Shown here piece by piece: positions 9,790 to 38,676 of a DNA stretch of 64,000 bases; the stretch's first letter is position 1, and each line of letters begins with the position of its first letter. The DNA comes from Thermoanaerobaculia bacterium (GTDB taxonomy: Bacteria > Acidobacteriota > Thermoanaerobaculia > UBA5066). Made by a program: the position numbers and the translations under genes. The stretch is taken from positions 2,080,001 to 2,144,000 of the forward strand of contig CAVRAY010000001.1 of NCBI GenBank assembly GCA_963719225.1, in the 5' to 3' direction. The notes below the pieces were generated by a model. That model searched no databases and was not told the origin of the DNA. It worked only from the letters and a program-made list of their open reading frames with translations.

Positions 9790-10987
9790 GTCGCACCTCC
9801 GGCTCGCCGAGCGCCGCCATCGCCGCCTCGAATTCCCGCGACTTCGCCTCCGTCTCGCGCCACTCGGCCTCCGCGTTCGAGTCCCACACGATTCCGCCTC
9901 CCGCGTGGTAGTCCACTGTATCCCGGCCGAGGATCGCCGTCCGGATCGCGACGTTGAAAACCGCCCGGCCGTCGCCGCGCACGAATCCCGTGGCTCCGCA
10001 ATACGCGCCGCGCGGCACCGTCTCAAGGTCGCGGATGAACCGCAGCGCCGCGCGCTTCGGCGCCCCCGTGATCGAGCCTCCGGGCAGCGTCGCGCGGAGG
10101 ACGTCGGAAAGCCGCACCTCCGGCCGCAAGCGCGCCTCCACCGTGGATTCCAGGTGATGCAGGTGGCGGAAGGACGTCAGCGTCCTCAGCGCGGTCGTCT
10201 CGACCTGCCCCGGCTCGGCCACCTTGCCGAGATCGTTCCTCAGGAGGTCCACGATCATCACGTTTTCGGCGGCGTCCTTAGGGGAAGTCAGAAGTTCACG
10301 GCGCCGGGCGGCGTCCTCGGCCTCCGTCGCGCCGCGGCCGATCGTGCCCTTGATCGGCTTCGTGACCGCGCGCCGCGCCGCGAGATCCACGTCGAGGAAC
10401 AGCTCCGGCGAGTTCGAGACGACGGCCCAGTCGTCCTCGGCGAGCGTCATGGCGAAGGGCACGGGGTTGTCGCGGTAGAGGGCATGTGCGAGGGCAACGG
10501 GCTCGACGCGTCCCGCGAAGCGCGTGCGGCGCGAGAGATTGACTTGATAGACGTCGCCGCGGGCGATCCCGGCGCGGATGGCCTCGACACCTCTCCTCCA
10601 TGAGTCCGAGGAGAGCACGCGCTCCGCGCGTGCCGGTTCTTTGAAGGTGAATAAAGAAGATTCGGATGGGGATGGCGGCGCGGAACGTTGGACGCCGGAG
10701 CGGCGGCCATCGAAAACGGAGAATTCTGCGAAGGGAAGAAATTCATGCTGCCTGACGAGCCCCGTCGAGCCTTCGAGGAAAACGCCCGCTTCGTAGGAAA
10801 TGAACCCCGCGGCGATGAGGTTCGGATCGCCTGACTCTGCGATTTCGTCCAGCGACGCGAGCACGTCGGGCAGCTGCCGAGGAGTTTCGGCGCGCAGGAT
10901 TCTTTCTTCACCTTCTAAGAAAATCCCGGGTCCTCTTCCCTCTCCCAGTCCCCACCCCTCCCCGTTGAAGAGAACGTTCATGGTCAT
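9779..10987 (-). CDS. pabB: Aminodeoxychorismate synthase component I
   Basis: GDVYQVNLS, SPELFL, PIKGT, KDAAENVMIVDLLRNDLG, PGGSITGAPK, NVAIRT. Confidence 0.85.
   Translation of the reverse strand: MTMNVLFNGEGWGLGEGRGPGIFLEGEERILRAETPRQLPDVLASLDEIAESGDPNLIAAGFISYEAGVFLEGSTGLVRQHEFLPFAEFSVFDGRRSGVQRSAPPSPSESSLFTFKEPARAERVLSSDSWRRGVEAIRAGIARGDVYQVNLSRRTRFAGRVEPVALAHALYRDNPVPFAMTLAEDDWAVVSNSPELFLDVDLAARRAVTKPIKGTIGRGATEAEDAARRRELLTSPKDAAENVMIVDLLRNDLGKVAEPGQVETTALRTLTSFRHLHHLESTVEARLRPEVRLSDVLRATLPGGSITGAPKRAALRFIRDLETVPRGAYCGATGFVRGDGRAVFNVAIRTAILGRDTVDYHAGGGIVWDSNAEAEWRETEAKSREFEAAMAALGEPEVRREP
10898..10960 (-). repeat. Purine-tract/GATTTCTTNGAAAGG motif copy inside the pabB 5' end
   Basis: Minus strand reads GGGAGAGGGAAGAGGACCCGGGATTTTTCTTAGAAGGTGAAGAAAGAA; core 10911-10926. 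Confidence 0.55.
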
Positions 10988-10991
10988 CGTC

Positions 10992-10998
10992 TAGTCTA
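10992..10998. promoter_or_regulatory. Overlapping divergent -10 hexamers (TAGTCT on +, TAGACT on -)
   Basis: Only 10-19 bp separate the divergent pabB and thioesterase starts; TAGACT (-) lies 5 nt before pabB ATG 10987 and TAGTCT (+) lies 9 nt before GTG 11007. Confidence 0.5.
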
Positions 10999-11426
10999 TG
11001 GGGACCGTGAGCTCTTCCCATCCCGCAGTCGAGACCTCCCTCCAGGTGCGCTATGCCGAGACGGACGCGCAGCGCGTCGTCTATCACGCCAACTACATCA
11101 TCTGGTTCGAGGTCGCGCGCACGACTTACTGCGAGCACGCCGGCTACCCCTATCCGCGCATGGAGGCGGAGGGCTCGTTCATCACCGTCACCGAGGCGCA
11201 CGTGCGCTATCGCCGGGCCGTGCGGTACGGAGACACCGTGAAGGTCCGCGCCCGGATGACGGAGCTGAAGAGCCGGGGTTGCACCTTCCACTACGAGATC
11301 GTCCTCCCCGACGGCGCGCTCGCGGCCGAAGGAGAGACGCAGCATCTCTTCCTCGACGCGTCCGGCCGCCCGCGCACCGTGCCCGAGCCGATCTCGAAGG
11401 CCTTCCGGGAGTTCGCGCGGCTCTGA
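10998..11426 (+). CDS. YbgC/4HBT-family acyl-CoA thioesterase (true start may be GTG 11007)
   Basis: VRYAETDAQRVVYHANYIIWFEVAR hotdog-fold motif. Confidence 0.9.
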   Translation: MGTVSSSHPAVETSLQVRYAETDAQRVVYHANYIIWFEVARTTYCEHAGYPYPRMEAEGSFITVTEAHVRYRRAVRYGDTVKVRARMTELKSRGCTFHYEIVLPDGALAAEGETQHLFLDASGRPRTVPEPISKAFREFARL

Positions 11427-11441
11427 AGCGCGGGGACTGGC

Positions 11442-11930
11442 CTACCCGCCGTTCGGCATCTTCCTCTTCAGCGCGCGGTGGACGATGGCCGGGACGAGAC
11501 CCGAGACGTTGCCGCCGAGCTGGTGGACCTGCTTCACGAGGCGGCTCGACGTGTAGGACAGCTCCTCTTTCGGCGTCAGGAAGAGCGTCTCGACCTGGGG
11601 CCCGAGCCGGCGGTTCATGAGCGCCATCTGGAACTCGTGCTCGAAGTCCGACACGGCTCTGAGGCCGCGCACGACGATGCGCGCGTTCTCCTTGCGCATG
11701 AAGTCCACGAGGAGGCCCTTGAACGACTTCACGACGACCTTCGGCTCGCGCCTGAAGATCGCACGCATCATCTGGAGGCGCTCCTCCACGGTGAAGAGCG
11801 GCTCCTTCTCGGTGTCGATGAGGACGGCGACGAGCACCCTGTCGAAGATGCTGCAGCCCCGTCTGATGAGGTCGACGTGGCCGTTCGTCATCGGATCGAA
11901 CGTGCCCGGATAGACGGCGGTGCGCTTCAC
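11442..11930 (-). CDS. coaD: Phosphopantetheine adenylyltransferase
   Basis: YPGTFDPMTNGH, RGLRAVSDFEHE, SSRLVK; GTG start. Confidence 0.96.
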   Translation of the reverse strand: MKRTAVYPGTFDPMTNGHVDLIRRGCSIFDRVLVAVLIDTEKEPLFTVEERLQMMRAIFRREPKVVVKSFKGLLVDFMRKENARIVVRGLRAVSDFEHEFQMALMNRRLGPQVETLFLTPKEELSYTSSRLVKQVHQLGGNVSGLVPAIVHRALKRKMPNGG

Positions 11931-13770: not shown

Positions 13771-13803
13771 TCGGGAGATGTTACTTGGCGGCGCCGGGGC
13801 GCC

Positions 13804-20683: not shown

Positions 20684-21480
20684 CCGCGATGAGCGCGGTG
20701 ACCGCGCGGGCGGAGGCGCTTCCGGCGCCGACCGTATCCGACATCCTTTCGCGGCGCGCGCGTACCGGCATCGCCCCGCGATTCCTCACGGCTGCCGTGT
20801 CGATCCTCGCCCATGCGGGATTCCTCGCGCTCGTTCTCCTCGTGGGCAAACCGCGCAAGTCTCCGGTCTTCGTCCCGATGTCCCTTCCCGTTCGCGTCGT
20901 GAGCCCAGCCTCCCTCGGCCGGCCCCAGGCGGCGCCGGCGCCCGTTCCCGTCCCGGCGCCCGCCGAGCCGGCGCCCGCGCCCAAGGCGAAGCCCGTGATC
21001 GAGAAGCCGACGGAAAAGGTCCTTCCGTCCGCGAAGGCGATGCCCGAGCCGAAGAGGCCCGCGAAGCCCGAGAAACCGAAGCCCGCCCCGGCCGCCGCCA
21101 AGCCTTCCGGAGGACCCGCCCTCGAGCTTCCGAGCGCCGCGGGCGCCCCGACCGGCAGCACCTCGGGCGCGGGAGTCTCCTTCGGAGCGTCCGTCACCTC
21201 GTTCGACGCCGATTTCCCGTTCGCCTACTACGTGGAGCAGCTGCTCTCGCTGATCGGCGCGAACTGGTTCAAGCCCGAGTCGGCCGAGAATACGAGCTGC
21301 GTCATCTCGTTCCGCGTCATGCGTTCCGGGCAGGTCACGGACGTCAAGGTCGACACCTCGTCGGGCGTGAGCTATTACGACCGGGCCGCGGCTCGCGCCG
21401 TATACGCCGCGAATCCGCTCCCGCCGCTCCCGCCGGATTACCGGAACGAGTCGCTCGGCGTCCATCTAAAGTTCCAGTGA
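20680..21480 (+). CDS. TolA/TonB C-terminal domain protein
   Basis: TM anchor containing SILAH, Pro/Lys-rich stalk, SSG..YDRAAARAV..ANPLPPLP; lies between tolR and tolB. Confidence 0.85.
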   Translation: MTAMSAVTARAEALPAPTVSDILSRRARTGIAPRFLTAAVSILAHAGFLALVLLVGKPRKSPVFVPMSLPVRVVSPASLGRPQAAPAPVPVPAPAEPAPAPKAKPVIEKPTEKVLPSAKAMPEPKRPAKPEKPKPAPAAAKPSGGPALELPSAAGAPTGSTSGAGVSFGASVTSFDADFPFAYYVEQLLSLIGANWFKPESAENTSCVISFRVMRSGQVTDVKVDTSSGVSYYDRAAARAVYAANPLPPLPPDYRNESLGVHLKFQ

Positions 21481-21490
21481 GGGAAATTCT

Positions 21491-22933
21491 TTGAGAGAAA
21501 TAGAAGAGAGAAAAGAGAAGATTTCCTTGAAAGGGGAAGAAAGAGGGGGCCGGAAAGAGCGGCCGTGGAGGATCCGGCGCGCGGCTCTGCTCCTCTTCGC
21601 AGCGGTGCTCCTCTCCGGCCCTTCCCTTCTCGGCCAGGCGCCGAAGCCCGTCCCGACGATGTCCGGTGTCACGCAGCCCTCGAACATCGATCTCACGCTC
21701 ACCGGCACCGCCGGGGCGCGGCGGCCGCTGGCGATTCCGATGACGATCGCGCCAATTTCGCCGGACCTGCAGACGCGGGCCGTGGATCCCTTCTACACGA
21801 CGCTCACGGACGATCTCGCGGGTTCCGGCGTCTTCGTCGTGGCCGATCCGGCTCTCTACCCGAAGGGAATGCGCCCGCCGCAGAACCGCGAGGAGGGCGA
21901 CGCGTGGAAAGCGACGTCGGCTCAATTCCTCCTCGACACGCATCTCGCGTCGGACGGCGCGAACGTGACCGTCGAGGCCACGCTCCTGGATCTCGGCACG
22001 CTCAAGTCCATCCTCGGCAAGAAGTACTCCGGCGAGATGCGCGCGGCGCGGCGCATCGCCCATACCCTCGCGAGCGACCTCGTCCGGCAGTTCACCGGAA
22101 GGCCGGGCCCTTTCCTGACGAAGATCGCCTTCTCGTCCGACCGGGAACGCGTCGCCGGAAGGCAGGTCGTGAAGGAGATCTTCACGATGGACTTCGACGG
22201 CGACAACCAGCGCCGCATCACCTACTCGAACACGCTCTCGCTCGCGCCCGACTGGTCTCCGGACGGTACGAAGCTCGTGTACCAGTCGTACGAAAGGGAC
22301 ACGCCGGGCCTTTGGCTCATCGGAAAGGACGGAGGCGACAAGCGCCAGATCCCCGTCCCGACGCAGCTCAACTCCTCTCCATCCTATTCCCCGGACGGCA
22401 GGACGATCGCGTTCTGCGGCAGCGTCAAGGGGAACACCGAAATCTTCACCGTCCACACGGACGGATCCAACCTGAAACGGCTCACGGAGAACGCGGCGAT
22501 CGATTCGACTCCCCGGTGGTCCCCGAACGGGCGGGAGCTGGCGTTCACGTCGAACCGCCAGGGCTCACCCCAGGTTTTCATGATGGACCTGGAGGGAGCC
22601 AACGTGCGGCGCGTGTCGCTCGCCGGCAACTGGAACGACGAGGCGGCGTTCTCGCCGGACGGAGGAAGGCTCGCCTTCGCGTGCCGGAACGAGGGTGATT
22701 TCCAGATCTGCGTCATGGACCTCGCAACCGGGCGGACCGTTCAGATTTCGAGCGGATCCGGCGCCCACGAGGGCCCCACGTGGTCGCCCGACGGGTCGAA
22801 AATCGCCTGGGAGGTCCAGCGCGGCAATTCGACGCAAATCGCCGTCGGAAACGCCGACGGGAGCGGCACGGCGCGCATCGTGACGTCGTCCGGCAACAAT
22901 TTTTCCCCCTCGTGGATCAAGACGCTAGAATGA
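21491..22933 (+). CDS. tolB: TolB beta-propeller protein (start uncertain: TTG 21491 or 21527)
   Basis: TolB N-domain (RRIAH), TKIAF, six PD40 repeats (PDWSPDG, PSYSPDG, PRWSPNG...). Confidence 0.93.
   Translation: MREIEERKEKISLKGEERGGRKERPWRIRRAALLLFAAVLLSGPSLLGQAPKPVPTMSGVTQPSNIDLTLTGTAGARRPLAIPMTIAPISPDLQTRAVDPFYTTLTDDLAGSGVFVVADPALYPKGMRPPQNREEGDAWKATSAQFLLDTHLASDGANVTVEATLLDLGTLKSILGKKYSGEMRAARRIAHTLASDLVRQFTGRPGPFLTKIAFSSDRERVAGRQVVKEIFTMDFDGDNQRRITYSNTLSLAPDWSPDGTKLVYQSYERDTPGLWLIGKDGGDKRQIPVPTQLNSSPSYSPDGRTIAFCGSVKGNTEIFTVHTDGSNLKRLTENAAIDSTPRWSPNGRELAFTSNRQGSPQVFMMDLEGANVRRVSLAGNWNDEAAFSPDGGRLAFACRNEGDFQICVMDLATGRTVQISSGSGAHEGPTWSPDGSKIAWEVQRGNSTQIAVGNADGSGTARIVTSSGNNFSPSWIKTLE
21493..21549 (+). 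repeat. Purine-tract/GATTTCTTNGAAAGG motif copy at the tolB start
   Basis: GAGAGAAATAGAAGAGAGAAAAGA-GAAGATTTCCTTGAAAGGGG-AAGAAAGAGGGGG; core 21517-21536. Confidence 0.8.
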
Positions 22934-24718: not shown

Positions 24719-24754
24719 GAGAAGAAGAAAGAAGATTCTTTGAAAGGGAGAGAG
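24719..24754 (+). repeat. Purine-tract/GATTTCTTNGAAAGG motif copy after rpsT
   Basis: GAGAAGAAGAAA-GAAGATTCTTTGAAAGGG-AGAGAG; core 24731-24748. Confidence 0.8.
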
Positions 24755-25313: not shown

Positions 25314-25931
25314 CTAGAAGCCTTCGAGGATCGTCGTGACGAGGTTCTGCGCGAACGGGCGGGCCATCGCCTCGATCGCCTCGCGCTCGCGGTCGTAATA
25401 CGAGCTCGCGCTCGAGGGCACGGTGTAAGGCTGCCGGAAGAGGTATGCCGGCTCGGAGAAGATCGGCTTGTCGGTGGCCTTTTCGGTCAGGACGAGCTTT
25501 CCCGAGACCGTCACCTGGTATTCGACCGCGATCCCGTTCGCGTCGAAGCGGACGGGCGCAACCGAGCAGGACGTCAGCCGCCCCGACAGCTCGGAGTCCG
25601 CCGCGGCCCTGTCGGACACGGGCTTGAGACGGCCGCGCGCGGACAGCTCCCGAATGACGGCGTCCGTGAGGCGCTGCTCGAGCCCCACGACCGTCGTGTC
25701 GTTGATGAACGTCGGCACATAAACCGTCTTGACGCCGACCGGCAGCGCGCTCGTCCCGGTGCCCACGAGCGAGTACCCACAGCCGGAAACGGAGAATAGG
25801 AAAATGATCAAGAAAGAGAAGAGAAAGACTTCTTTGAAAGGGGAAGTACCCGGAGCGCGGCACCGGCCGCGCGGTGCGACGGACGTCCGCCCGCGACCAC
25901 TCGAAGAATCTTCTCTTCCTTCTTCCGTCAC
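25314..25931 (-). CDS. lptE: LptE-family LPS assembly lipoprotein
   Basis: Lipobox [21 protein letters not shown]; immediately downstream of leuS (known leuS-lptE synteny); GTG overlapping the leuS stop taken as start. Confidence 0.8.
25810..25926. repeat. Convergent pair of the purine-tract motif in the lptE 5' end
   Basis: + core AAGACTTCTTTGAAAGGGG 25825-25843; - core GAAGATTCTTCGAGTGG 25913-25897; purine tails point outward. Confidence 0.75.
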
Positions 25932-28540
25932 TTGACGACCAGATTCAGCAGTCGGTCCTGCACCCAGATGGTCTTCACTATTTGCTTGCCGTCCAGCCAA
26001 CGAGAGAGCGTCGCCTCATCCTGAGCCGCGGCTACCGCTTCCTTCTCAGAAGATCCTCTTCGAAGCTTGATCTCGGCACGTACCTTTCCCGACACCTGTA
26101 TTGCAATCGACGCGACCTCCTCTTTCGCGAGCGCGGGATCGAAGCTCGGCCAGCCCGACTCGAGGAGGCTCTTCCTGCCGCCCAGCCTCTCGTTCAACTC
26201 TTCGGAGAGATGCGGCGCGACGGGATGGAGGAGCGTCACGAGCGTGCGCAGCGTCGTTGCGGTCTCGCCCGCGTCCGCGCCCGCGTCGTTCAGAAGGACC
26301 GTCGCGCCGTTGAGGAATTCCATGAGGTGCGCAACGGCCGTGTGGAACGAGAACGCCCGGAAGTCCTCCGTGACCTTCTTGATCGTCATGTGCCGCGCGC
26401 GCGCCGCCGGGGTGTCGGCCTTCGCCGGCTGCGCCTGTGGATCGGCGCCCGTCTCGAGGAACCGCTCGACGGCGCTCCGAACGCGCCAGAGAAAGCGCTC
26501 CGGCCCGCTGATGCCCTCGTCGTTCCATTCGGCGTCCTTCTCCGGGGGGCCGAGGAAGAGGACGAACGCGCGCACGGCGTCAGCGCCCTTCTCGGCGATG
26601 AGCGCGTCGAGCGACACGGCGTTGCCGCGCGACTTCGACATCTTCTCGACGCGACCCGTCGGGGACAGACGCGTGATCATGCCCTGGTTGAAGAGGGCCG
26701 TGAACGGCTCCTCGAACGTCACGAGGCCGAGATCCTTCAGGATGCGCGTGAAGAAGCGCGCGTAGAGGAGATGCAGGATCGCGTGCTCGATGCCGCCGAT
26801 GTACTGGTCGACGGGGGCCCACTCCTTCACGAGAGAGGGGTCGAAAGGCGCCGCGGCGTTCTGCGGATCGATGTACCTCAGGAAATACCAGGACGAGTCC
26901 ACGAAGGTGTCCATCGTGTCGGTCTCGCGGCGGGCAGGCCCGCCGCACCGAGGACACTTCGTCTGCACGAAGGAAGCGACCTTCTCGAGCGGATTTCCGC
27001 CCTTGCCCGTGAACGGCGCGTCGGGCGGCAGGACGATTGGAAGGTCCTTCTCCGGTACGGGCACCCACCCGTCCTTCTCACAGTGGATCATGGGAATCGG
27101 CGTACCCCAGTAGCGCTGGCGCGAGATGAGCCAGTCGCGGAGGCGGTAGCGCACGCGGGGCCCGCCGATCCCTCTCTTCGCGGCTTCGGCGGCAATGAGT
27201 TCGCGGGCAGAAGAGGAAGATTTTGCTGAGAAGGGACCAGAGGCAATGAGGTTTCCTTCGCCCGTGTAGGCGACCGAAGGGACGTCGGCACCGCCGGAAT
27301 GAGATTTGTTCGAGTGGTCCCTCGCAGGCGCGACGCCGGAGCCCGAGGCGCCGCCCGACGCACGTGTTTCGCCCTTCCCCTTTTCCCCTCTAAGCAAATC
27401 TTCTTCTTTCTTCTTCTCTTCTTCGATCACGCGAACGATCGGGATCCCGTACTTCCTCGCGAACTCGAAGTCGCGCGTGTCGTGCGCGGGCACCGCCATG
27501 AGCGCGCCCGTGCCGTAGTCGGCGATGACGAAGTTCGCGAGCCACACGGGCACTTCCACTCCCGTGAAGGGGTTGATCGCCGTGCGGCCGGTGTCGCGGC
27601 CGTCCTTCTCGGCGCCCTCGGCCTCGCGCACGATGCGCTCCTGGCTGCGGACGGACGCGACCCAGGCTTCGAGCTCGGCCCGCTTCGGGCTGCCTTCGAG
27701 AAGCCGCGGGACGAGCGCGTGCTCGGGCGCGAGGATGAGCGCCGTCGCGCCGAAGACCGTGTCGGGGCGCGTCGTGAAAACGCGCACGGATTCGTTCAGC
27801 GAAGGGATCGCGAAATCCAGGTCGGCGCCCGTGGACCTTCCGATCCAGTTGCGCTGCATCGTCACGACTTTTTCGGGCCACTTGCCGAGCGTGTCGAGGC
27901 CGTCCAGCAGGCGATCCGCGTAGTCGGTGATCTTCAGGAACCACTGCTCGAGCTCTCGCTGCACGACCGCAGTGCCGCAGCGGTCACAGACGCCCCCCTC
28001 GGCCTGCTCGTTCGCGAGCACGGTCAGGCACGACGGGCACCAGTTCACGGCGGCCTTCTTGCGGACCGCAAGGCCCTTTTCCCAGAGCTTCAGGAAGAAC
28101 CACTGGTTCCAGCGGTAATAGTCGGGCTCGCAGGTCGTGACTTCTTTCGTCCAGTCGTAGAGGACGCCCCACGACCGGAACTGCTCCTTCATGGCCGCGA
28201 TGTTCGCGAGCGTCGACGTGCGCGGGTGGATGCCCTTCTGGATCGCATAGTTCTCCGCCGGCAGGCCGAACGCGTCCCAGCCCATCGGGCAGAACACCGT
28301 CACGCCCGTCTGTCGCAGGAAGCGATGGAGCGCGTCCGTGAGGAAATACGTGCGCGCGTGCCCGACGTGGAGGCGATCTCCCGATGGATAGGGAAGCATG
28401 ACGAGGAGATACGTTCCATCGCCCGCCGGCTGCGACGTGTCGACGAACGCCGCCCGTTCCGCCTCCCAGCGGTCGCGCCATTTCGCCTCGATCCTGAGGA
28501 TTTCTTCGCCTTTTGCCGTGGCGGTCGCGGTGCGGTCCAT
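25928..28540 (-). CDS. leuS: Leucine--tRNA ligase with a ~40 aa low-complexity insertion
   Basis: [58 protein letters not shown]. Confidence 0.97.
27209..27235 (+). repeat. Degenerate motif copy in leuS (antisense)
   Basis: AGAAGAG-GAAGATTTTGCTGAGAAGGG; encodes PFSAKSSSS on the minus strand. Confidence 0.55.
27296..27424. repeat. Convergent motif pair spanning the in-frame insertion in leuS
   Basis: + core GAGATTTGTTCGAGTGG 27301-27317; - core GAAGATTTGCTTAGAGGGG 27403-27385 with a ~20 nt pure purine tail. Confidence 0.75.
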
Positions 28541-30458: not shown

Positions 30459-31469
30459 TCAGCGCGCGGCGAGCTCGCTCACGCGCGCATGAGGTCCTTC
30501 GAAACCGAAATTCTCGCCGTAACGGGCGATGAAGTCGGCGATCCCATACCTGGGCGGCTGCGGGCCGAGGGCTTCGAGCGTGTAGACGGCGGCCACGCTT
30601 CCCACGCGGCCCGCGACCTCCCAGGGCAGACCGAGGTGGCGCGCCGCGAGAAGGCCGCCGCGAAACGCGTCTCCGACGCCCGTCGGATCCACCGCCGTGC
30701 CGCGGAGGCGGGCGGGCGGAATGCGGAACGTCGTGACGCCGTCGGGAGCCTCCGCCTGGCCGCCCCTCAGCGCGATCGTGGAGCCCTCGGCACCACGCGT
30801 CACGACGAGAACGGGCGCGTGCGAGAGCACCTCGGCTTCCGAGAGGCCGGTCTTCATCTCGATCACGCCGAACTCGTACTCGTTCGCGATGAGCATCGCG
30901 GCGCCTTGCAGCCCTGCGAGAAGGTCGTCGCCCGAAAGCCGCGCGACTTGCTGGCTGGGGTCGTATACGAATGCGATGCGGAGCTCCCGGCACTCCGTCG
31001 CGTACTTCGCCATCGCGACGGGATCGTTCGGCGAGATGATCGCGACGCTCACGCTGCTCGGCGAGAGTTCCCGGAAGGACAGCGTCGAGGCGCGTGCCAT
31101 GGCCCCGGTGTAGAAAGTCGCGATCTGGTTCTGTGCCTGATCGGTGGAGACGAAGAACGAGGCGGTGAAGAGATCGTCGCAAATGTGCAGGGCCGAAGTG
31201 TCGACTCCCTGCTCGGCGAGCCAGCGGCTGTAATCGAGCGCGTCGATACCTGCCGTCGCCATGACGAGCGGCCGGAGGCCGAGGAGCGCGAGCGTGTAGG
31301 CGATGTTCGGAGCTACGCCCCCCCGCACCTTGCGCATGGAATCCACGAGGAACGAGACCGAGAGTCGGTCCATGCGGTCGGGCACGACGACGTCGAGGAA
31401 CTTCCCCGGGAACGTCATGAGGTAGTCGTAGGCGACGGAGCCGGTGACGACGATGCGGCGAGCGGTCAT
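30459..31469 (-). CDS. PfkB-family carbohydrate/nucleoside kinase (adenosine kinase-like)
   Basis: TGSVAYD, GGVAPNIAY, DPSQQ, NEYE, DPTGVGDAFRGG; coupled to mtnP. Confidence 0.88.
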   Translation of the reverse strand: MTARRIVVTGSVAYDYLMTFPGKFLDVVVPDRMDRLSVSFLVDSMRKVRGGVAPNIAYTLALLGLRPLVMATAGIDALDYSRWLAEQGVDTSALHICDDLFTASFFVSTDQAQNQIATFYTGAMARASTLSFRELSPSSVSVAIISPNDPVAMAKYATECRELRIAFVYDPSQQVARLSGDDLLAGLQGAAMLIANEYEFGVIEMKTGLSEAEVLSHAPVLVVTRGAEGSTIALRGGQAEAPDGVTTFRIPPARLRGTAVDPTGVGDAFRGGLLAARHLGLPWEVAGRVGSVAAVYTLEALGPQPPRYGIADFIARYGENFGFEGPHARVSELAAR

Positions 31470-32368
31470 CTCTTTTCCTTGTTCAAAAGCAGCGCGAGCC
31501 GCTTCGAGGTGGCGGGAGCGATCCGGCCTCTCGGAGTGAGAACGGCGAAGTCGAGGGCGTTCGCGCAGTCGCTCGCGCGGCCGGGATCGAGGCGGCCGAC
31601 GGCGTTCGCGAGGACGCGATCCGCCGTGCCCGCGTTTTTCTTCAGGACGTCGAGGACGGCCTCGACCGAAACCGCCGCTCTTTCCTCGTGCCAGCAGTCG
31701 TAGTCCGTGACGAGCGCGATCGACGCGTAGCCGATGCCCGCCTCGCGGCACAGCTTAGCTTCGGTCGCGTTCGTCATGCCGATCACGTCTGCGCCCCAGG
31801 AGCGGTAGAGAAGCGACTCGGCCTTCGTCGAGAACTGGGGGCCCTCGATGCACACGTACGTCCCGCCCCGATGGCAAACGACGCCTTCGGCCCGGGCGGC
31901 CGCTTCGAGAGCGTCGACGAGCACGGCAGAAACCGGGTGCGCGAACGACACATGCCCCACGCAGCCGTCCCCGAAGAACGTCGAGATCCGGCGTTTGGTC
32001 AGGTCGATGAACTGTTCCGGCAGGACGATGTCGGTCGGCTCGTAGGCTTCCTTCATCGAGCCGCACGCCGACGCCGACAACAGCCATGAGCAGCCCAGCT
32101 TCCGGAATCCCCAGACGTTCGCGCGGTAGTTGATCTCGGAGGGGAGAAACGAATGATGCCGTCCGTGCCGGGCGAGAAACGCGACGGGGACCGAAGTGAG
32201 AGTCCCGAGAACGTAGGAGTCGGACGGGGCGCCGAAGGGCGTCGAAAGCCGCCGCTCCTCGAGGATCTTTAGACCAGGCAGGTTGTAGAGCCCCGAGCCG
32301 CCGATGAGGCCGATTCGCCTCTCCCCCCTCTTCCCTTTCGAAGAAATCTTCTTCTTCTCTTTCTTCAT
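31466..32368 (-). CDS. mtnP: S-methyl-5'-thioadenosine phosphorylase
   Basis: IGLIGGSG, TPFGAPS, RHGRHH..P..INYRAN, EGPQFSTKAES, GMT, TDYDCW. Confidence 0.93.
   Translation of the reverse strand: MKKEKKKISSKGKRGERRIGLIGGSGLYNLPGLKILEERRLSTPFGAPSDSYVLGTLTSVPVAFLARHGRHHSFLPSEINYRANVWGFRKLGCSWLLSASACGSMKEAYEPTDIVLPEQFIDLTKRRISTFFGDGCVGHVSFAHPVSAVLVDALEAAARAEGVVCHRGGTYVCIEGPQFSTKAESLLYRSWGADVIGMTNATEAKLCREAGIGYASIALVTDYDCWHEERAAVSVEAVLDVLKKNAGTADRVLANAVGRLDPGRASDCANALDFAVLTPRGRIAPATSKRLALLLNKEKR
32318..32366 (-). repeat. Purine-tract/GATTTCTTNGAAAGG motif copy forming the mtnP N-terminus
   Basis: GAAGAAAGAGAAGAA-GAAGATTTCTTCGAAAGGG-AAGAGGGGGGAGAGG; core 32351-32333; encodes KKEKKKISSKGKRGER. 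Confidence 0.82.
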
Positions 32369-33422: not shown

Positions 33423-36416
33423 ATGAGCAGCCGCGACTGGAAATCCACGCTCCTCCTCCCGAAGACGGAGTTTCCGATGAAGGCGGACCTTCCGAGGCGG
33501 GAGCCCGCCCGGCTTGCCCGGTGGCAGGCGGAGGATCTCTACGGGAGGCTCCGGTCGGCGCGCGCGGGCGCTCCGCGTTTTCTGCTCCACGACGGACCGC
33601 CGTACGCGAACGGCAAGATTCACATCGGCACGGCGATGAACAAGATCCTGAAGGACCTCGTCGTGCGGACGAGGACCCTCGCGGGCCTCGACGCGCCCTA
33701 CGTGCCCGGCTGGGACTGCCACGGCCTGCCCATCGAGCTGAGCGTGGACAAGGAGCTGGGACCCAGGAAGCGCGAGATGTCCGACGTCGAGGTCCGCCAG
33801 GCCTGCCGGAAGTTCGCCGAAAAGTGGATCGACATTCAGCGCGCCGACTTCAAGCGCCTCGGGATCCTCGGCAGGTGGGACTCGCCTTATCGCACGATGG
33901 ACTTCTCCTACCAGGCCGAGATCGCGAAGGCCTTCGGCGGATTCGTGGACCGCGGACTCGTCACGTTCGGTTTCAAGAGCGTGCTCTGGTGCGTGCGCGA
34001 CCGGACCGCGCTCGCCGAAGCGGAGATCGAGTACGAGGATCGAACGGATCCATCCATCTACGTCGCGATGCCGCTGGATGAAGATTCCTCGAAAGGCGCG
34101 TGGCCGGGCCTCGCAGAGGCGGCCGGTGCGCCGCGCCTGTACGCCCTGATCTGGACCACGACGCCGTGGACGCTGCCCGCGAACAGGGCGATTACTCTTG
34201 GCAAGGAAATCGAATACATGTTTCTTAGAAGGGAATCCGAGCCAGGCGCCGCGTACATCGTCGCGGAAGCGCTCGTTCCGCAGGTGACGGCCACTCTCGG
34301 CTGGACGGACGCCTCCCCTATTCCCCTTTCTAAGAAAAGCGGCGAGGCGATTCGGGACGCCGGCCTCAAGTACAGGCGGCCGTTCGCCGAACCGTCCGAA
34401 ACCAATTTCGGATTTCTCCTCGGCGAGCACGTGTCGACGACCGACGGCACGGGCCTGGTGCACACGGCGCCCGGGCACGGCCGCGACGACTACGAGGTCG
34501 TGAGGCGGCACGGCTTCAAGGTCGACGATCCCTCCCTCTGCCCGGTCGACGAGGGCGGCTTCTACGACGTGAACGCACCGGAGTTCCTGCGCGGAAAAAG
34601 GGTGGTCATCCCGAAGACTCCCGACCAGAGCGCGAACGACGCCGTCCTGGCGGCGCTCGCCACGAGCCCGGCAGAGGCCGCTTCCTTCGCGGGACGTCCC
34701 GACAAGGATCACTCCGGCTCTCTCCTCCTTTCGAAGAAATCTCTCTCCCACTCCTATCCGCACTGCTGGCGGTGCAAGCAGCCCGTCATCTTCCGCGCGA
34801 CTCACCAGTGGTTCATCGATCTGCACGCGATCCGCGAGCAGGCGCTCCGTGAGATTCACGACCGCGTCCGTTGGGTGCCGCCCTTCGGCGAGAACCGCAT
34901 CGGCGCGATGGTCGAGAATCGCCTCGAGTGGGCGATCTCGCGCCAGCGCCGCTGGGGCTCTCCGATCACGTTCCTCCGGTGCGCGGACTGCAGGGAGAAG
35001 GGCGTGATCTCGCACTATCCCTCGGTCGAGGGAACGGTCGGAGAGAGAAAAAAGAAAGAAAGAGAAGATTTCTTTGAAAGGGTAAGAGGGACCTTCCGCG
35101 AGCACGGAGCGGACGCCTGGTACGACGACGCGTTCCCCCCGTCTTACTTTCTAAGAAAATCTTCCTCTTCTTCTTCGTCTTCCTCTGCTTCCTGCGCGCG
35201 GTGCGGCGGCAGCTCGTTCGAGAAGGTCAAGGACATCCTCGACGTCTGGTTCGACTCGGGGGTTTCGCACGCGGCCGTGCTCCGTTCGGGCGACTACGGG
35301 CTTCCGGATCCGTACACCTCCAAGCCCCCGACGCCGGTCGTCTACCTCGAAGGCCACGACCAGCATCGGGGCTGGTTCCAGTCGTCCCTCCTGACGTCCG
35401 TCGCTCTCACGGGCAGCGCGCCGTACGACGCCGTGATCACGCACGGCTTCGTCGTGGCGGGGGACGGCCGGAAGATGTCGAAATCGCTCGGAAACACGGT
35501 GGACCCGCACGACGTCATCAAGAAGGACGGCGCCGACGTGCTGCGGCTCTGGGTGGCCTCGCTCGACTACACGAACGACGATCCCGTCTCCGAGGAAATC
35601 CTCAAGCGCACGGCCGAGGCGTATCGCAAGATCCGCAATACGGCACGCTTCCTCCTGTCGAACCTCTTCGACTTCGACCCCGCGAAGGATTCCGTGGCGA
35701 AAGACCGGATCGAGCCGCTGGACCGGTACATCCTGGACGTAGCGGCGCGCGTCGCGGCGGATTGCCGGCAAGCGAACGAGGCATACGCGTTTCACGTCGG
35801 CGTGCGTCGCCTCCTCGAGTTCGTGACGTCGGATCTCTCCGCCTTCTGGTGCGACGTCCGGAAGGACGTCCTCTACATCCTCGCCGCGAACGATCCGGTC
35901 CGGCGCTCCGCGCAGACCGCCGCCCACCGCCTCGCCGAGACGATCGCGCTCGCCCTCTCACCCATCTGTCCGTTCACGGCCGAGGAAATCTGGGAAGCCA
36001 TCCCGGGGAATGCATCAGATCCGGCCGCGCTCTTCCTGAAGAGCTGGAACGACCTCGAGCTTCCCGAGATTTCTTCGCGTGAAAGAGAGGCGTGGGGACG
36101 CGTCCTCGCGCTTCGAGCGGAGTTCCTGCAGGGCCTCGAGCCGCTCCGGAGAGAGGGAAGAGTCGGTTCCGCTTCCCAGGCGACGGCGGTCGTGGGGCGA
36201 GGCGGTGCCGTCGACGAGGCGCTCGCCGCTCTTTCCTTCTCAGAAGAAAAGCTCGCTGACGTTCTTGGAACACCGTCGGTCGTGCGGGAGGGAGTGGCGG
36301 ATGCGATCGCCGTGCGTCCCGCCGAGGGCTCCAAGTGCCCGCGCTGCTGGCAGGTGCGCACGGACGTCGAGCCCGACGGAACCTGCGCGCGCTGCCGCCG
36401 TGTGGTTGGCGAGTAG
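33423..36416 (+). CDS. ileS: Isoleucine--tRNA ligase (type 1, C-terminal Zn finger)
   Basis: HDGPPYANG, HIGT, GWDCHGLPIE, WTTTPWT, GTGLVHTAPGHG, ISRQRRWG, KMSKSLGN, CPRCW...CARC; ileS-lspA synteny. Confidence 0.97.
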   Translation: MSSRDWKSTLLLPKTEFPMKADLPRREPARLARWQAEDLYGRLRSARAGAPRFLLHDGPPYANGKIHIGTAMNKILKDLVVRTRTLAGLDAPYVPGWDCHGLPIELSVDKELGPRKREMSDVEVRQACRKFAEKWIDIQRADFKRLGILGRWDSPYRTMDFSYQAEIAKAFGGFVDRGLVTFGFKSVLWCVRDRTALAEAEIEYEDRTDPSIYVAMPLDEDSSKGAWPGLAEAAGAPRLYALIWTTTPWTLPANRAITLGKEIEYMFLRRESEPGAAYIVAEALVPQVTATLGWTDASPIPLSKKSGEAIRDAGLKYRRPFAEPSETNFGFLLGEHVSTTDGTGLVHTAPGHGRDDYEVVRRHGFKVDDPSLCPVDEGGFYDVNAPEFLRGKRVVIPKTPDQSANDAVLAALATSPAEAASFAGRPDKDHSGSLLLSKKSLSHSYPHCWRCKQPVIFRATHQWFIDLHAIREQALREIHDRVRWVPPFGENRIGAMVENRLEWAISRQRRWGSPITFLRCADCREKGVISHYPSVEGTVGERKKKEREDFFERVRGTFREHGADAWYDDAFPPSYFLRKSSSSSSSSSASCARCGGSSFEKVKDILDVWFDSGVSHAAVLRSGDYGLPDPYTSKPPTPVVYLEGHDQHRGWFQSSLLTSVALTGSAPYDAVITHGFVVAGDGRKMSKSLGNTVDPHDVIKKDGADVLRLWVASLDYTNDDPVSEEILKRTAEAYRKIRNTARFLLSNLFDFDPAKDSVAKDRIEPLDRYILDVAARVAADCRQANEAYAFHVGVRRLLEFVTSDLSAFWCDVRKDVLYILAANDPVRRSAQTAAHRLAETIALALSPICPFTAEEIWEAIPGNASDPAALFLKSWNDLELPEISSREREAWGRVLALRAEFLQGLEPLRREGRVGSASQATAVVGRGGAVDEALAALSFSEEKLADVLGTPSVVREGVADAIAVRPAEGSKCPRCWQVRTDVEPDGTCARCRRVVGE
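34080..34096 (+). repeat. Motif core copy in ileS
   Basis: GAAGATTCCTCGAAAGG. Confidence 0.5.
34218..34339. repeat. Convergent motif pair in ileS
   Basis: + TTTCTTAGAAGGG 34221-34233; - TTTTCTTAGAAAGGGGAATAGGGGAGG 34338-34312. Confidence 0.62.
34718..34749 (-). repeat. Motif copy in ileS (antisense)
   Basis: GGGAGA-GAGATTTCTTCGAAAGG-AGGAGAGAG; core 34743-34727. Confidence 0.75.
35040..35191. repeat. Convergent motif pair in ileS (strongest example)
   Basis: + GAAGATTTCTTTGAAAGGGTAAGA (core 35064-35082) after a ~24 nt purine run; - GAAGATTTTCTTAGAAAGTAAGA (core 35164-35147) with a purine tail encoding poly-Ser. Confidence 0.85.
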
Positions 36417-36425
36417 AATCCAGAC

Positions 36426-36926
36426 GTGTCGCGCCGGCTCGTCTATTTCGGAATCTCGCTTGCCGTCGTGGCCCTGGACCAGATCACCAAGGCGATCGTG
36501 GCCGCGCGGATTCCGCTCCACGACACGATTCCCGTGATCCGGGGCTTCTTCGACCTCACGCACGTGAGGAATCGGGGCACCGCGTTCGGCCTCTTCGCGC
36601 TGACCGACTCGCCGGCACGCACGTTGATCCTCACGCTCGTGGCGGCGGGGGTCTTTCTCGGCGTCCTCGCGTGGTCGCTCACCTCGCCCGTCACGCACAC
36701 GCGTCTTCAGACCGCGCTCGCGCTCGTCCTGGGCGGCGCGGTGGGGAACCTGATCGACCGCGTTCGCTTTCAGTCGGTGACGGATTTCCTGCGTTTCTAC
36801 GTGGACCGGTGGGAGTGGCCGTCCTTCAACGTCGCCGACAGCGCGATCAGCGTGGGGGTCGCGCTCCTCGCGTGGGACATCTGGCGGCATCCGCAGAAAG
36901 AGCCCGAGACGTGCACCCAGAGCTGA
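36426..36926 (+). CDS. lspA: Lipoprotein signal peptidase II
   Basis: DQITK, NRGTAFG, GGAVGNLIDR, VTDF, FNVADSAI. Confidence 0.96.
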   Translation: MSRRLVYFGISLAVVALDQITKAIVAARIPLHDTIPVIRGFFDLTHVRNRGTAFGLFALTDSPARTLILTLVAAGVFLGVLAWSLTSPVTHTRLQTALALVLGGAVGNLIDRVRFQSVTDFLRFYVDRWEWPSFNVADSAISVGVALLAWDIWRHPQKEPETCTQS

Positions 36927-37693
36927 TCCACATCGGGAGCTTCGCTCTCCCGAGCTACGGCGTGATGATGGCGCTCGGGTTCATCGCGGCGTTGTGGCTC
37001 GTCAGAAGGCGCGCCCCCGCGTTCGGTGTCGCCCCGGATGCGGCCTCGGACATCGGCATCTGGCTCCTCCTCTCGGGCCTCGTGGGCGCGAAGCTCCTCC
37101 TCGTGATCGTGGAATGGCCGCAATACGTCTCGTCCTGGGGCGGCCTGAAAGACCTCGCACGCGCGGGCGGCGTTTTCTACGGAGGCCTGATCGGCGCGCT
37201 CGTGGCCACCGTCGTGCTCCTTCGCAGGCGCGAGATCCCGTTCTTCACCTTCGCCGATATCGCCGCGCCGGCCGTCGCGCTCGGACAGGCCCTCGGCCGC
37301 GTCGGCTGCCTCCTCGCCGGCTGTTGCTGGGGCCGCGAATGCGCGCTTCCCTGGGCGATCACCTTCACCGACCCGAAGGCGCACGAGAACGTCGGAGTCC
37401 CGCTCGACGTTCCCCTTCATCCGACCCAGGTCTACGAGGCCGTGGGCACGCTCGTCCTGTGCATCCTGCTCCTCGTCCTCGAGCGCCGCCGTTACTCGGG
37501 CGAGACGTTCGTACGCTATCTGTTCGGCTACGCGCTGCTCAGGTTCGTCATCGAGCTCTTCCGCGGCGACCCCCGCGGGTCGGTGTTCGGCGCGATGTCG
37601 ACGTCGCAGTTCATCGCTCTCTGCGGCGTGGCCGTGGCGGTCGTGCTCTGGGCCCTGCGCCGCAAAACGGCTCCGGCGCCCGCCGCCGCGTGA
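36911..37693 (+). CDS. lgt: Prolipoprotein diacylglyceryl transferase
   Basis: SYG, GGVFYGG, GRVGCLLAGCCWG, HPTQVYE, RFVIELFRGD; GTG start. Confidence 0.93.
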   Translation: MHPELIHIGSFALPSYGVMMALGFIAALWLVRRRAPAFGVAPDAASDIGIWLLLSGLVGAKLLLVIVEWPQYVSSWGGLKDLARAGGVFYGGLIGALVATVVLLRRREIPFFTFADIAAPAVALGQALGRVGCLLAGCCWGRECALPWAITFTDPKAHENVGVPLDVPLHPTQVYEAVGTLVLCILLLVLERRRYSGETFVRYLFGYALLRFVIELFRGDPRGSVFGAMSTSQFIALCGVAVAVVLWALRRKTAPAPAAA

Positions 37694-38676
37694 CCGGCGC
37701 GCCGCGCAGGATCCGCGCCGACCGGGGTGACGGGGGCGAGCGCCTCGACCGCGTACTGCTCCGGCACCTGAACGACCTGCCCGAGGCGTCGCGCACGAAG
37801 ATCCAGGAGTGGATCGAAAGCGGCTGTGTTTCGCTCGGAGGAAGAAAACCGAAGAAGATCTCCGAGAAGGTCAGGACGGGAGACGAGATCCAGATCCACC
37901 TTCCCGCTCCGCCCCCTCCTCGCCCCGACCTCGTGGCCCAGGACATCCCGCTCTCGATTCTATTCGAAGATTCCGAGATCCTCGTCCTCGACAAGCCTCC
38001 CGGCCTCGTCGTGCATCCCGCCGTCGGACACCGCGACGGCACGCTCGTGAACGCGCTTCTCCACCGCTCGAAGGATTGGGCCGGCCCCGCAGATCGACCC
38101 GGGCTCGTCCATCGGCTCGACAAGGACACGTCTGGGGTCCTCGTCGTCGCGAAAACCGAAACGGCAATGGCAGTTCTGGGGAGAGCAATAAAAGAGAGAT
38201 TCCTAGAAAAGGAATATCTGGCCGTCGTCTACGGGCACCCTGCCGTCCGCAAGGGAAAAATCGAGATGGGCATCCTGCGGGACCCGAGGGACCGCAAGCG
38301 CATGGCCGCCTCGAAAACCGAAGGACGTCCATCGACCACCTTCTATGAAATTCTTTCCGAATCCTCGGGCTCCCTCTCCGGTCTCTCTCTCCTGAAATGC
38401 ACCCTCGTCACCGGACGCACGCACCAGATCCGCGTCCACCTCAAGGCTCTTCACCTACCCATCGTGGGAGACCCGACATACGGCTCACCGCGGTGGAAGG
38501 GGATGAAGGTCGAGGCGCTCCGCGAGCTCTGCCGGACTTTTCCCCGCCAGGCGCTCCACTCCTGGCGCCTCACGCTTAAGCATCCGACGACGCGCGAAAA
38601 GATGAGTTTCGTCGCACCGGTGCCCGGCGACATCAAGAGTCTTCTCGAAGCAGCCGGGCTCCCGCCGCCGGTGTAA
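37690..38676 (+). CDS. rluD: RluA-family 23S rRNA pseudouridine synthase with S4 domain
   Basis: RLDR S4 domain, DKPPGLVVHP, RPGLVHRLDKDTSG, TGRTHQIRVH, RQALH. Confidence 0.9.
   Translation: MTGAPRRIRADRGDGGERLDRVLLRHLNDLPEASRTKIQEWIESGCVSLGGRKPKKISEKVRTGDEIQIHLPAPPPPRPDLVAQDIPLSILFEDSEILVLDKPPGLVVHPAVGHRDGTLVNALLHRSKDWAGPADRPGLVHRLDKDTSGVLVVAKTETAMAVLGRAIKERFLEKEYLAVVYGHPAVRKGKIEMGILRDPRDRKRMAASKTEGRPSTTFYEILSESSGSLSGLSLLKCTLVTGRTHQIRVHLKALHLPIVGDPTYGSPRWKGMKVEALRELCRTFPRQALHSWRLTLKHPTTREKMSFVAPVPGDIKSLLEAAGLPPPV
38180..38358. repeat. Degenerate convergent motif pair in rluD
   Basis: + AAAAGA-GAGATTCCTAGAAAAGG (core 38196-38212); - GGAAAGAATTTCATAGAAGG 38358-38339; local burst of A/T-ending codons. 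Confidence 0.58.

Follow-up and report, generated by a model that had tools for sequence, protein, structure and literature searches.

The window, a stretch of 64,000 nucleotides from the genome of a Thermoanaerobaculia bacterium (G000, placed in that class by its IleS relatives), carries in and between its genes repeated copies of a short, AT-rich motif set in GC-rich host DNA. Each copy, hereafter called an arm, was scored with a matrix trained on the genome, a score of at least 14 bits being the threshold, and was assigned to a gene or to an intergenic gap with our own gene caller, by which the copies at +21517, +24731, and +25825 are intergenic. The sites in the window and their two main host genes are as follows, facing partners being cited by a central position.

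10630..10655, + strand: 14.5-bit arm lying antisense to a chorismate-binding-domain gene (9779-10981, - strand); faces 10917 at 276 bp
10717..10742, + strand: arm, 17.6 bits; faces 10917 at 189 bp
10903..10928, - strand: arm, 31.2 bits, sense in the chorismate-binding-domain gene; centre 10917
21480..21505, + strand: 20.5-bit arm in the intergenic gap that follows a TonB-C-terminal-domain gene; in tandem with the 21516..21541 arm
21516..21541, + strand: arm, 20.3 bits, intergenic; the sole opposite site, of 1 bit, is 73 bp ahead
24729..24754, + strand: arm, 23.6 bits, intergenic by our own gene call; partner not found
25823..25848, + strand: 25.1-bit arm in the gap that separates lptE from leuS, facing 25904 at 70 bp and 26047 at 213 bp
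25890..25915, - strand: weak arm, 8.5 bits, intergenic; partner of 25834
25928..28540, - strand: host gene leuS
26033..26058, - strand: weak arm, 11.1 bits, 3' end of leuS
27217..27242, + strand: arm, 16 bits, antisense in leuS, overwriting native residues
27293..27412, - strand: 40-codon in-frame insertion in leuS vs. a motif-free relative, holding the strong arm 27392 and the decayed inner arm 27310
27299..27324, + strand: decayed inner arm of 0.7 bits (four relatives score 8-15 bits), 82 bp away from 27392
27378..27403, - strand: arm, 30.5 bits, sense in leuS; faces 27228 at 164 bp
32327..32352, - strand: arm, 26 bits, 5' end of a phosphorylase-family gene (31466-32368, - strand); partner not found
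33423..36416, + strand: host gene ileS
34078..34103, + strand: decayed ileS arm of 2.3 bits (three relatives score 18-22 bits), 243 bp away from 34332
34215..34240, + strand: arm, 19.3 bits, sense in ileS; faces 34332 at 106 bp
34318..34343, - strand: arm, 25.3 bits, antisense in ileS
34720..34745, - strand: arm, 23.3 bits, antisense in ileS; partner not found here
35063..35088, + strand: 30.9-bit sense arm of ileS, facing 35153 at 79 bp across the native conserved FREHGADAWYDD
35139..35164, - strand: arm, 30.7 bits, antisense in ileS
35160..35186, + strand: outer tail of the 35153 arm, reading as nine serines; its length differs among relatives
36064..36089, + strand: weak ileS arm of 4.9 bits (most relatives score 13-27 bits), 166 bp away from 36241
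36227..36252, - strand: weak arm in ileS, 7.4 bits
37853..37878, + strand: 4.2-bit site within a pseudouridine synthase gene, possibly a decayed arm; indistinguishable from chance
38193..38218, + strand: 20.4-bit sense arm of the pseudouridine synthase gene (37690-38676), facing 38345 at 141 bp
38331..38356, - strand: arm, 11.6 bits; partner of 38204

Genome-wide, 828 arms (about 800 copies, about 0.18 per kb) reach the threshold, and shuffled matrices give 8-20 hits on contig C1. Arms are asymmetric, non-palindromic, purine-rich sequences of 25-45 bp with near-invariant bases. Their commonest core is TTTCTT(A/C)GAAGG and not the GAAAGGG form put forward in a preliminary description of the window. 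All 12 copies which that description had called clear were recovered in place or a few bases off; 11 score 20-31 bits and the twelfth, +34080, is decayed at 2.3 bits. Its ten weaker copies divide into three of 16-19 bits (10719, 27216, and 34221), four of 7-12 bits (25913, 26056, 36252, and 38358), and three below 5 bits (27301, 36066, and 37853). The excess of the motif is borne out: the 19-mer proposed earlier has five matches in the window with at most three mismatches (shuffle mean 0.02), and coding sites number 554 vs. 56-69 in three within-gene synonymous shuffles. An assembly artefact was rejected because the 12-mer core recurs in the genus and arms occupy the same IleS columns in relatives.

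Arms are clustered, 42% of gaps being shorter than 300 bp vs. 6% expected. Many are genic (574/828, 69%), but 254/828 (31%) are intergenic, so that the earlier phrase "written into essential genes" is true of only part of the sites. Genic arms are found in sense (291) and antisense (283) orientation and in all three reading frames. As for codon usage, 84 of the 259 TTA codons fall in the 0.39% of codons that lie near arms.

Arms usually come as convergent pairs that favour a certain spacing, a trait that the first reading had overlooked: two arms face each other, mostly 65-200 bases apart. A facing partner lies 25-300 bp ahead of 75.7% of the 828 arms, vs. 3.1% behind and 3.3% at random places, and about a quarter of all arms are partnerless. 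Pairs within 300 bp comprise 312 facing, 13 back-to-back, 41 ++, and 35 -- arrangements. The median spacing is 79 bp in non-coding pairs (n=56, quartiles 73-114) vs. 119 bp in coding pairs (n=165), and spacings seldom fall below a limit of about 65 bp (19 of the 263 pairs left after de-duplication). A 10.5-bp helical phasing of the spacings was not found in a test covering periods of 6-45 bp (p=0.45), nor do the arms have a periodic WW signal. Interior GC is 71% vs. 64% in non-coding DNA. GpC odds in interiors are 1.18 and 1.20 (GC-matched controls 1.02±0.02 and 1.05±0.05) and purine-purine steps are rarer than in such controls, a step bias that is small and whose genic part partly reflects Ala/Gly/Arg-rich loops. 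Finally, interiors are unique, with 62 non-self hits vs. 58 in controls, of 350, and the 35 of these without a homologous flank match mostly extra arms, not spacers. This uniqueness, together with the lack of co-variation between partners, argues against both an RNA stem and a mobile cassette.

Arms grow by substitution and by in-frame insertion. Compared with a motif-free relative, 34 of 43 cores align gap-free to its residues, meaning that codons were overwritten; gapped cores (9/43, 21%; control 4%) and outer-tail insertions (14/43, 33%; control 5%) make up the other mode, and in-frame insertions carrying arms reach about 50 codons. In leuS, an arm of 11-21 bits stands at the 27217..27242 place in 15/15 genus g1 genomes read. 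At the orthologous leuS site the pair spacing spans 68-167 bp among genomes; the four genomes with the longest insertion have the inner arm at 82-85 bp, and the shortest insertion barely exceeds a single arm in length. Orthologous IleS sites display graded intermediates, and 13 of 14 alignable sites are retained in a relative about 76% identical. The decayed miniature element of Rickettsia type suggested at first is not supported, given the unique interiors, the absence of a common peptide, the gap-free cores, and the fact that no RAYT transposase was found in G000.

On the chromosome, dif lies at C1:2,037,568, and parS and dnaA at C2:326-334 kb, the single true parS being at C2:333,827, where arms are sparsest. 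Arm density near dif is 3.5-fold that at the origin: when the chromosome is binned by distance from the terminus, successive bins carry 28.8, 24.4, 13.9, and 9.9 arms per 100 kb, and the origin region carries 8.2 (rho -0.73 across 38 bins). This gradient depends largely on a single genome assembled in two contigs, one of which (C2) is chimeric in part. In intergenic DNA it runs from 80.6 to 29.9, and in coding DNA from 22.9 to 7.1. Base composition and synonymous divergence were rejected as its cause because GC3 is flat (0.872-0.881) and, at fourfold sites, divergence from G003 comes to 0.316 (terminus), 0.297 (0.9 Mb), and 0.344 (1.8 Mb), values from few genes with most comparisons near saturation. 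In G054 (genus g11), sites are distributed patchily, and their density shows no clean trend away from dif.

The signal is restricted to two genera. It is abundant in 28/28 other genomes of the genus of G000 and weaker in 8/8 genomes of one other genus, and 114 other genomes have 0-3 hits each. The exact 12-mer core has 21-210 copies in each of 24/24 other genomes of the genus and none in 16 sister-family genomes. Seven candidate classes of reader protein were tested and none was supported. Two ParBs occur across the order, and the recognition helix of the dif-adjacent one is the same in motif-bearing and motif-free genomes (25 loci), as is that of FtsK-gamma across motif-bearing and motif-free genera. 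Gyrase and Topo IV A subunits are present in all eight genera searched, motif-free ones included, an extra HU also in the motif-free G041, and a basic tandem-helix protein (C1:3836045) in 17/17 motif-free g13 genomes. Histone folds were not found in five genomes. Y1/RAYT was not found in G000; it occurs in 3/19 other g1 and 12/12 g13 genomes, and 20 RAYT loci have no flanking arm arrays.

From these comparisons, we consider the motif to be a selected DNA signal read by a putative protein, with a probability of about 0.85. The cis-acting signal proposed in the preliminary description is upheld by the equality of sense and antisense copies, the use of three frames, the rare codons at synonymous positions, the genus-wide conservation, and the terminus gradient; selection would act on DNA, not on RNA or protein. 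Each arm would be half of a two-armed element with a unique GC-rich middle, the arms standing about 75-80 bp apart where no protein constrains the spacing. A sequence-specific protein likely reads the arms on double-stranded DNA; one two-fold symmetric complex would read both, bend the middle into a U-turn, and likely contribute to the organisation or segregation of the chromosome's terminus half. This favoured reading, in which a sequence-specific protein would bend or bridge DNA at the element as part of chromosome organisation, is, judged from sequence, an even bet. The negative outcome for every candidate reader, the partnerless quarter of arms, and the patchy sites of G054 count against it. 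So does the absence of 10.5-bp phasing, since a rigid short loop would show such phasing; it would point to flexible linkers or a sliding complex and not to a rigid LacI-type loop.

A rather unlikely alternative is an uptake-type drive, in which an uptake or transfer machinery would prefer fragments with facing arms around a bendable middle, the pair being a ready-made kink for drawing DNA through a pore, and recombination would spread arms into genes. Like USS/DUS (PMC2817400), arms are non-palindromic, equal on both strands, and gained by mutation in genes with effects on proteins; kinkable sequences are proposed as uptake start in PMC3458573. Arms are also lineage-restricted, as uptake dialects are, and ComEC is present in 47 of 49 family genomes including G000. 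However, ComEC occurs with or without the motif and does not track it, and a 3.5-fold terminus gradient would not be expected. Moreover, USS/DUS are more even than random with inverted pairs that are mostly terminators, whereas arms occur in clusters, both members of a pair fall within the same gene in 233 of 379 cases, and convergent, divergent, and co-directional gaps have much the same intergenic density. It is improbable that a transposase-, recombinase-, or reverse-transcriptase-like enzyme inserts or copies single arms, pairs being the ends of a selfish or domesticated element. The in-frame arrivals, gapped cores, and outer-tail insertions would suit it, as would the shortest leuS insertion and inverted doublets that resemble the REPINs of PMC3116915. 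Against such an enzyme stand the prevalence of gap-free cores, the graded IleS intermediates, the control-level hits of interiors and their matches to extra arms, the retention of sites in the relative, and the distribution of Y1/RAYT.

We give as little credit to the view that a sliding or translocating repair or replication enzyme (helicase-nuclease, translocase, clamp) loads or stops at the arms, each arm being polar and facing arms bounding a short zone where two complexes would meet. Strict polarity, the near-65-bp limit, and the lack of phasing fit sliding better than rigid looping, and the purine-rich words of arms resemble KOPS/SRS-type translocase signals. Nevertheless, unpaired arms have no replichore bias (44/50 and 40/31), while the KOPS word is polar in G000 (246/155 and 111/176), and FtsK-gamma is unchanged. 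Very improbable, finally, is an RNA-level element, with arms pairing in the transcript or serving as promoters, terminators, or ribosome-binding mimics. The consensus sequences of two facing arms are necessarily complementary, part of the arm looks, by eye, like the complement of the 16S 3' end, and one core position is slightly more alike in partners than at random (0.44 vs. 0.37). But neither real partners (-28.3 vs. -28.15±0.60 kcal/mol when shuffled) nor the sense strand have a duplex advantage, G-U pairs show no excess over A-C (708 vs. 685), short loops are avoided, interiors fold no better than controls (z -0.15 vs. -0.10, p=0.97), and no kind of intergenic gap is favoured.

As a putative DNA signal of chromosome organisation, the motif can be compared with matS/MatP and other position signals (KOPS, AIMS, parS, Noc/SlmA sites), with which it shares a density that varies between origin and terminus and sites tolerated in genes. 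matS is a palindrome with a short site list in one terminus macrodomain, whereas arms are asymmetric, number hundreds chromosome-wide, and form a two-armed unit. parS/NBS is a 16-bp palindrome near the origin, unlike arms, which neither ParB nor FtsK tracks and which are rarest there; the TTC-N3-GAA core resembles ParB-family half-sites. Arms rise toward the terminus (G054 aside) as do KOPS and AIMS, the increase of AIMS being described in PMC5993296, but they lack leading-strand bias. The gyrase motif (PMC6379681) is likewise symmetric, with a central part and two arms over roughly 120-130 bp; it is degenerate with phased 10-bp GC variation, in contrast to the near-invariant bases, variable spacing, and aperiodic WW content seen here, and gyrase and Topo IV also occur in motif-free genera. 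Inverted doublets are over-represented as in REPINs/BIMEs (PMC3116915), yet REPINs are extragenic hairpins with a RAYT, whereas 69% of arms are genic, interiors are unique and native, no result speaks for a hairpin, and most motif-rich genomes lack a RAYT. Some arms come as in-frame additions to housekeeping proteins, as Rickettsia palindromic elements do (PMC10969869); those are families of about 150 bp with a conserved peptide, whereas arms share neither an interior nor a peptide, and most of their cores replace existing codons. HIP1 of cyanobacteria (PMC5861425) is also hyper-abundant and conserved in and between ORFs without peptide or RNA role, and a role in nucleoid structure is proposed, but it is an 8-bp palindrome and not a 25-45-bp asymmetric arm in facing pairs. 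The USS of Pasteurellaceae and the DUS of Neisseriaceae, according to PMC2817400 and PMC3458573, are non-palindromic, lineage-specific sequences of hundreds of copies, with a core and flanking tracts, gained inside genes whose proteins they alter; arms are similarly over-represented on both strands. Unlike USS/DUS, which reach 0.8-0.9 per kb and are evenly spread, arms are sparser, clustered, and terminus-weighted; three quarters of them stand in facing pairs that are mostly genic and are not terminators, and they are gained also by in-frame insertions.

The source genome (4.75 Mb, 68% GC) is made up of two contigs, C1 and C2. The window spans C1:2,080,001-2,144,000, and among named organisms the nearest relatives by IleS are Thermoanaerobaculia (Acidobacteriota). 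A matrix iterated on C1 converged on TTTCTT(A/C/T)GAA(G/A/T)G, preceded by a purine tract and followed by a purine tail, a unit hereafter called an arm. Because the genome scanned is also the one used to train the matrix, the weight of the evidence rests on controls. At a threshold of at least 14 bits, C1 holds 758 sites, vs. 8-20 with ten column-shuffled matrices, and within-gene synonymous codon shuffling reduces 554 coding sites to 56-69, which rejects amino-acid composition as the cause of the motif. The preliminary description, which had listed copies in the window and found no conserved peptide to explain them, is borne out: all listed copies are present in the window sequence. Of the 828 sites of the whole genome, 254 are intergenic; the others lie in genes, 291 in sense and 283 in antisense orientation, in all frames. 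Gene coordinates come from a purpose-built codon-model caller (3,856 genes, 88% coding), whose starts may be off. Codons near arms make up 0.39% of all codons and include 84 of the 259 TTA codons of the genome. On C2, the stretch between about 609 and 801 kb (609,000-801,000) repeats C2 6-223 kb in inverted orientation, at 66-85% identity and with a second tmRNA; judging by the sequence, it is likely a piece of a related species attached by a chimeric join. This copy keeps 13 of 14 alignable sites (11 further sites being unalignable), and the genome without the part of C2 above 600 kb still accounts for 804 of the 828 sites. A second AT-rich over-represented word family, TAACGATAT and its overlaps, has about ten copies at C1:1,840,000-2,240,000 and is probably one repeat array.

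Arms are mostly arranged in facing pairs, that is, on opposite strands across a unique GC-rich interior. Pairs within 300 bp comprise 312 plus-then-minus and 13 minus-then-plus cases, along with 41 plus-plus and 35 minus-minus ones. An opposite arm (at least 8 bits, 25-300 bp) lies ahead of 75.7% of arms and behind 3.1%, vs. 3.3% at random places. Clear pairs in the window are the following:

10728/10917, opposite strands, clear facing pair
25834/25904, opposite strands, clear facing pair
27228/27392, opposite strands, clear facing pair
34226/34332, opposite strands, clear facing pair
35074/35153, opposite strands, clear facing pair
38204/38345, opposite strands, clear facing pair

An unpaired arm makes the Lys-rich extension MKKEKKKISSKG at the beginning of a phosphorylase-family gene as called at 31466-32368 of the window (minus strand), the true start of which may lie downstream.

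Of 379 pairs, 116 were set aside because words of their interiors recur from a preceding pair; the spacing of the remaining 263 is below 65 bp in 19 cases, 65-99 bp in 95, 100-199 bp in 115, and longer in 34. Median spacing is 79 bp in non-coding pairs (n = 56, quartiles 73-114) and 119 bp in coding pairs (n = 165). Helical phasing at 10.5 bp was not found in these spacings (p = 0.45, with nothing at 10-11 bp among 78 periods tested), nor were 30-bp steps (p = 0.18); the exceptions among the 78, uncorrected, were a period of 7.5 bp (0 of 500 resamples) and periods of 42-44.5 bp (p 0.002-0.016). A cluster of paralogous Ser/Thr-kinase-like genes at C1:2,293,000-2,320,000 carries several arms in each gene, and such paralogues probably cause a 93-bp peak in pair spacing.

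Comparison with other genomes bears on how arms arise within genes. When sites were compared with 410 kb of the motif-free genome G049, 43 could be classed, several of them in paralogous kinases, and 8 more lay at alignment edges. Cores are gap-free in 34 of the 43, but with 1.1 of 5 residues identical, compared with 3.1 in the control; the other 9 are gapped, and the outer tail holds an insertion in 14 of the 43. In IleS, a 79-bp pair flanks native conserved sequence, with Glu/Lys and poly-Ser tails added, and one ileS pair tolerates a spacing of 79 or 82 bp. LeuS was compared at 30 loci, 15 from the motif-rich genus g1, to which the source genome belongs, 6 from a second, weaker motif genus (g11), and 9 from others. 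Its antisense arm lies over native residues in 15/15 g1 genomes, and the facing arm falls within an in-frame insertion in 11/15 g1, 2/6 g11, and 0/9 other loci. Spacings are 68, 83, 98, 107, 116, 128, 164, and 167 bp, and an inner arm stands at 82-85 bp in the four genomes with the longest insertion. These alignments, compared without a tree and hence silent on the order of events, suggest that the LeuS arms were gained by substitution and local insertion, with a pull toward about 75-85 bp. Odd poly-Ser and Glu/Lys loops in host proteins would be accounted for as side effects of a signal in the DNA.

In pattern searches at the scale of the order and of the phylum, more than a handful of matches per genome came from g1 and g11 alone, so that the motif does not extend to the whole class. 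A 15-base pattern gives 66-358 matches in each of the 28 other g1 genomes, which rejects an assembly artefact as the source of the motif, 7-50 in each of 8/8 g11 genomes, and 0-3 in the remaining 114 genomes of the order searched. The negatives include G025, a genome flagged unpublished, on which none of the conclusions hangs. A pair pattern matched 4 of 301 phylum genomes, all g1, with no g11 among the matches listed. In 400 kb of G049, no other paired motif was seen (top word z 15, vs. 61 in the source genome). Since the strength is graded across genera, the origin of such signals becomes testable by comparison, and the motif can serve as a marker for binning the genus. Viral sequences were searched as well: IMG/VR gave 34 single-arm and 53 pair matches, which appear chance-like because nearly all lie in DNA of 24-54% GC (one at 65%) and 45 of the 53 pair matches contain just the two matched cores. 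The sole viral locus with many cores, a contig of 29% GC (L267) with ten in 6 kb, is probably a repeat in AT-rich DNA.

The window lies at the replication terminus, as deduced from the positions of dnaA and the single parS (C2:326-334 kb), of dif (C1:2,037,568), and of the cumulative GC-skew maximum (C1:2.10 Mb). With growing distance from the terminus, sites per 100 kb fall from 28.8 to 24.4, 13.9, and 9.9, and to 8.2 in the origin region (38 bins, rho -0.73, p 2e-7). The gradient is present in both intergenic and coding DNA; GC3 is flat along the chromosome, and fourfold-site divergence is not raised at the terminus (small sample). In the genome of locus L018, a relative and not an independent case, the first 100 of 156 plus-strand matches run at 12, 26, 30, and 29 per approximately 0.5 Mb toward and past ileS, leaving 56 for the other 2 Mb or so. 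A clean gradient from dif was not found in the g11 genome G054, where sites are patchy. Arms flank dif itself (C1:2,037,451-2,037,775), apparently as one facing pair on each side.

Several proteins were considered as readers of the arms. A second parA-parB operon adjoins dif (C1:2,037,568-2,039,524; L114:7568-9524), and in 25/25 genomes from three families of the order a dif-like site shares the 6-20 kb locus with it. This ParB has a conserved helix-turn-helix, which differs from that of the origin ParB; as a reader the protein is without support, the operon being order-wide and the helix-turn-helix the same with or without the motif. FtsK-gamma, RAYT, histone folds, the copy number of type II topoisomerases (gyrase/Topo IV), and ComEC are without support and do not track the motif. 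RAYT-like Y1 proteins (about 310-340 aa; loci L190-L209), some flanked by their own short repeats, show the inverse distribution, with 21/21 genomes of other genera and 3/19 other g1 genomes. A weak lead is the fourth gene of the HU family, which stands between ftsK and fmt (C1:2,998,748; L215:5248-5526) in genera g1, g11, and g10: it is present at 8/8 g1 and 4/4 g11 loci and 0/7 loci of five other genera, but also in motif-free G041, and in 3/4 g11 genomes the neighboring HU is apparently missing instead. Another weak lead is an uncharacterised, very basic 164-aa protein at C1:3,836,045 (L288:2045-2539, minus strand), chosen by visual inspection of a filtered set of 112 basic proteins, of which 12 were read in context and this one profiled. 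It has two predicted three-helix units, an RGRP stretch, and a C-terminal helix (mean pLDDT 70), with no Pfam match over cut-off and only non-significant fold matches, to paired-HTH domains (best E 0.46). It is possibly a nucleoid protein, but occurs in 55/62 family genomes, including motif-free ones, and no residue was seen to separate motif-bearing from motif-free genera.

The reading that we favor, at a probability of about 0.5, is that the pair is a two-armed site for a sequence-specific protein with a role in chromosome organisation or segregation. Core bases that are near-invariant while partners do not co-vary would suggest that a protein reads the double-stranded DNA. The strictly facing orientation, together with a minimum spacing of roughly 65 bp, suggests one two-fold symmetric complex, since a U-turn of the middle makes facing arms parallel; the lack of helical phasing may reflect a flexible or sliding contact, and the terminus gradient would fit an organising or segregating role. 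Possible, though doubtful, is a new chromosome punctuation in which a lineage-specific machine would have hundreds of convergent sites, each pinning a plectoneme tip or U-turn of about 75 bp, and the pressure would suffice for tRNA synthetases to gain new loops as long as 50 residues. That the arms load a translocating enzyme would be an improbable alternative, and unpaired arms of the source genome show no replichore polarity.

An uptake-type drive, which shares with the arms the remodelling of proteins, is rather unlikely and yet carries more weight than the remaining alternatives. An inserting enzyme is as improbable as translocase loading; the preliminary description had offered a decayed miniature element, and local insertions do occur, but cassette mobility finds no support. 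Interiors are unique, with a non-self match in 62/350 vs. 58/350 controls; 27 of the 62 have homologous flanks (paralogues), and the remainder mostly match extra arms. Their GC content is 71%; relative to matched controls, GpC and CA/TG steps are modestly enriched and purine-purine steps less frequent. A role in RNA is very improbable, as duplexes of real partners are no better than shuffled ones and show no G-U bias. Beyond the consensus, the two arms of a pair resemble each other no more than arms taken at random, and a stem or hairpin is without support from partner likeness, duplex pairing, or interior folding. If a protein does read the pair, this would be a new chromosome-architecture or DNA-transfer system, apparently confined to part of one family.

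To our knowledge, few dispersed DNA signals reshape a bacterial proteome, namely uptake sequences and HIP1. Other systems for comparison are matS, parS, Noc, KOPS/SRS words, and LacI loops. No description of the motif was found in titles and abstract openings, a coverage largely outside subscription journals and in which supplements could mention it. Arms resemble uptake sequences in the remodelling of proteins (PMC2817400, PMC3458573, bioRxiv 10.1101/2025.10.24.684340), HIP1 in having neither a peptide nor an RNA role (PMC5861425), and AIMS in rising toward the terminus (PMC5993296). They lack defining features of each of the three (uptake sequences; HIP1, PMC5861425; AIMS, PMC5993296), as well as of REPINs (PMC3116915), RPEs (PMC10969869), and the gyrase motif (PMC6379681). 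None of the proteome-reshaping signals compared works through two facing elements set at a favored distance within genes. For facing two-armed sites, the comparison is with CTCF sites, and the proposed punctuation would be akin to a miniature of convergent CTCF or origin-loading sites.
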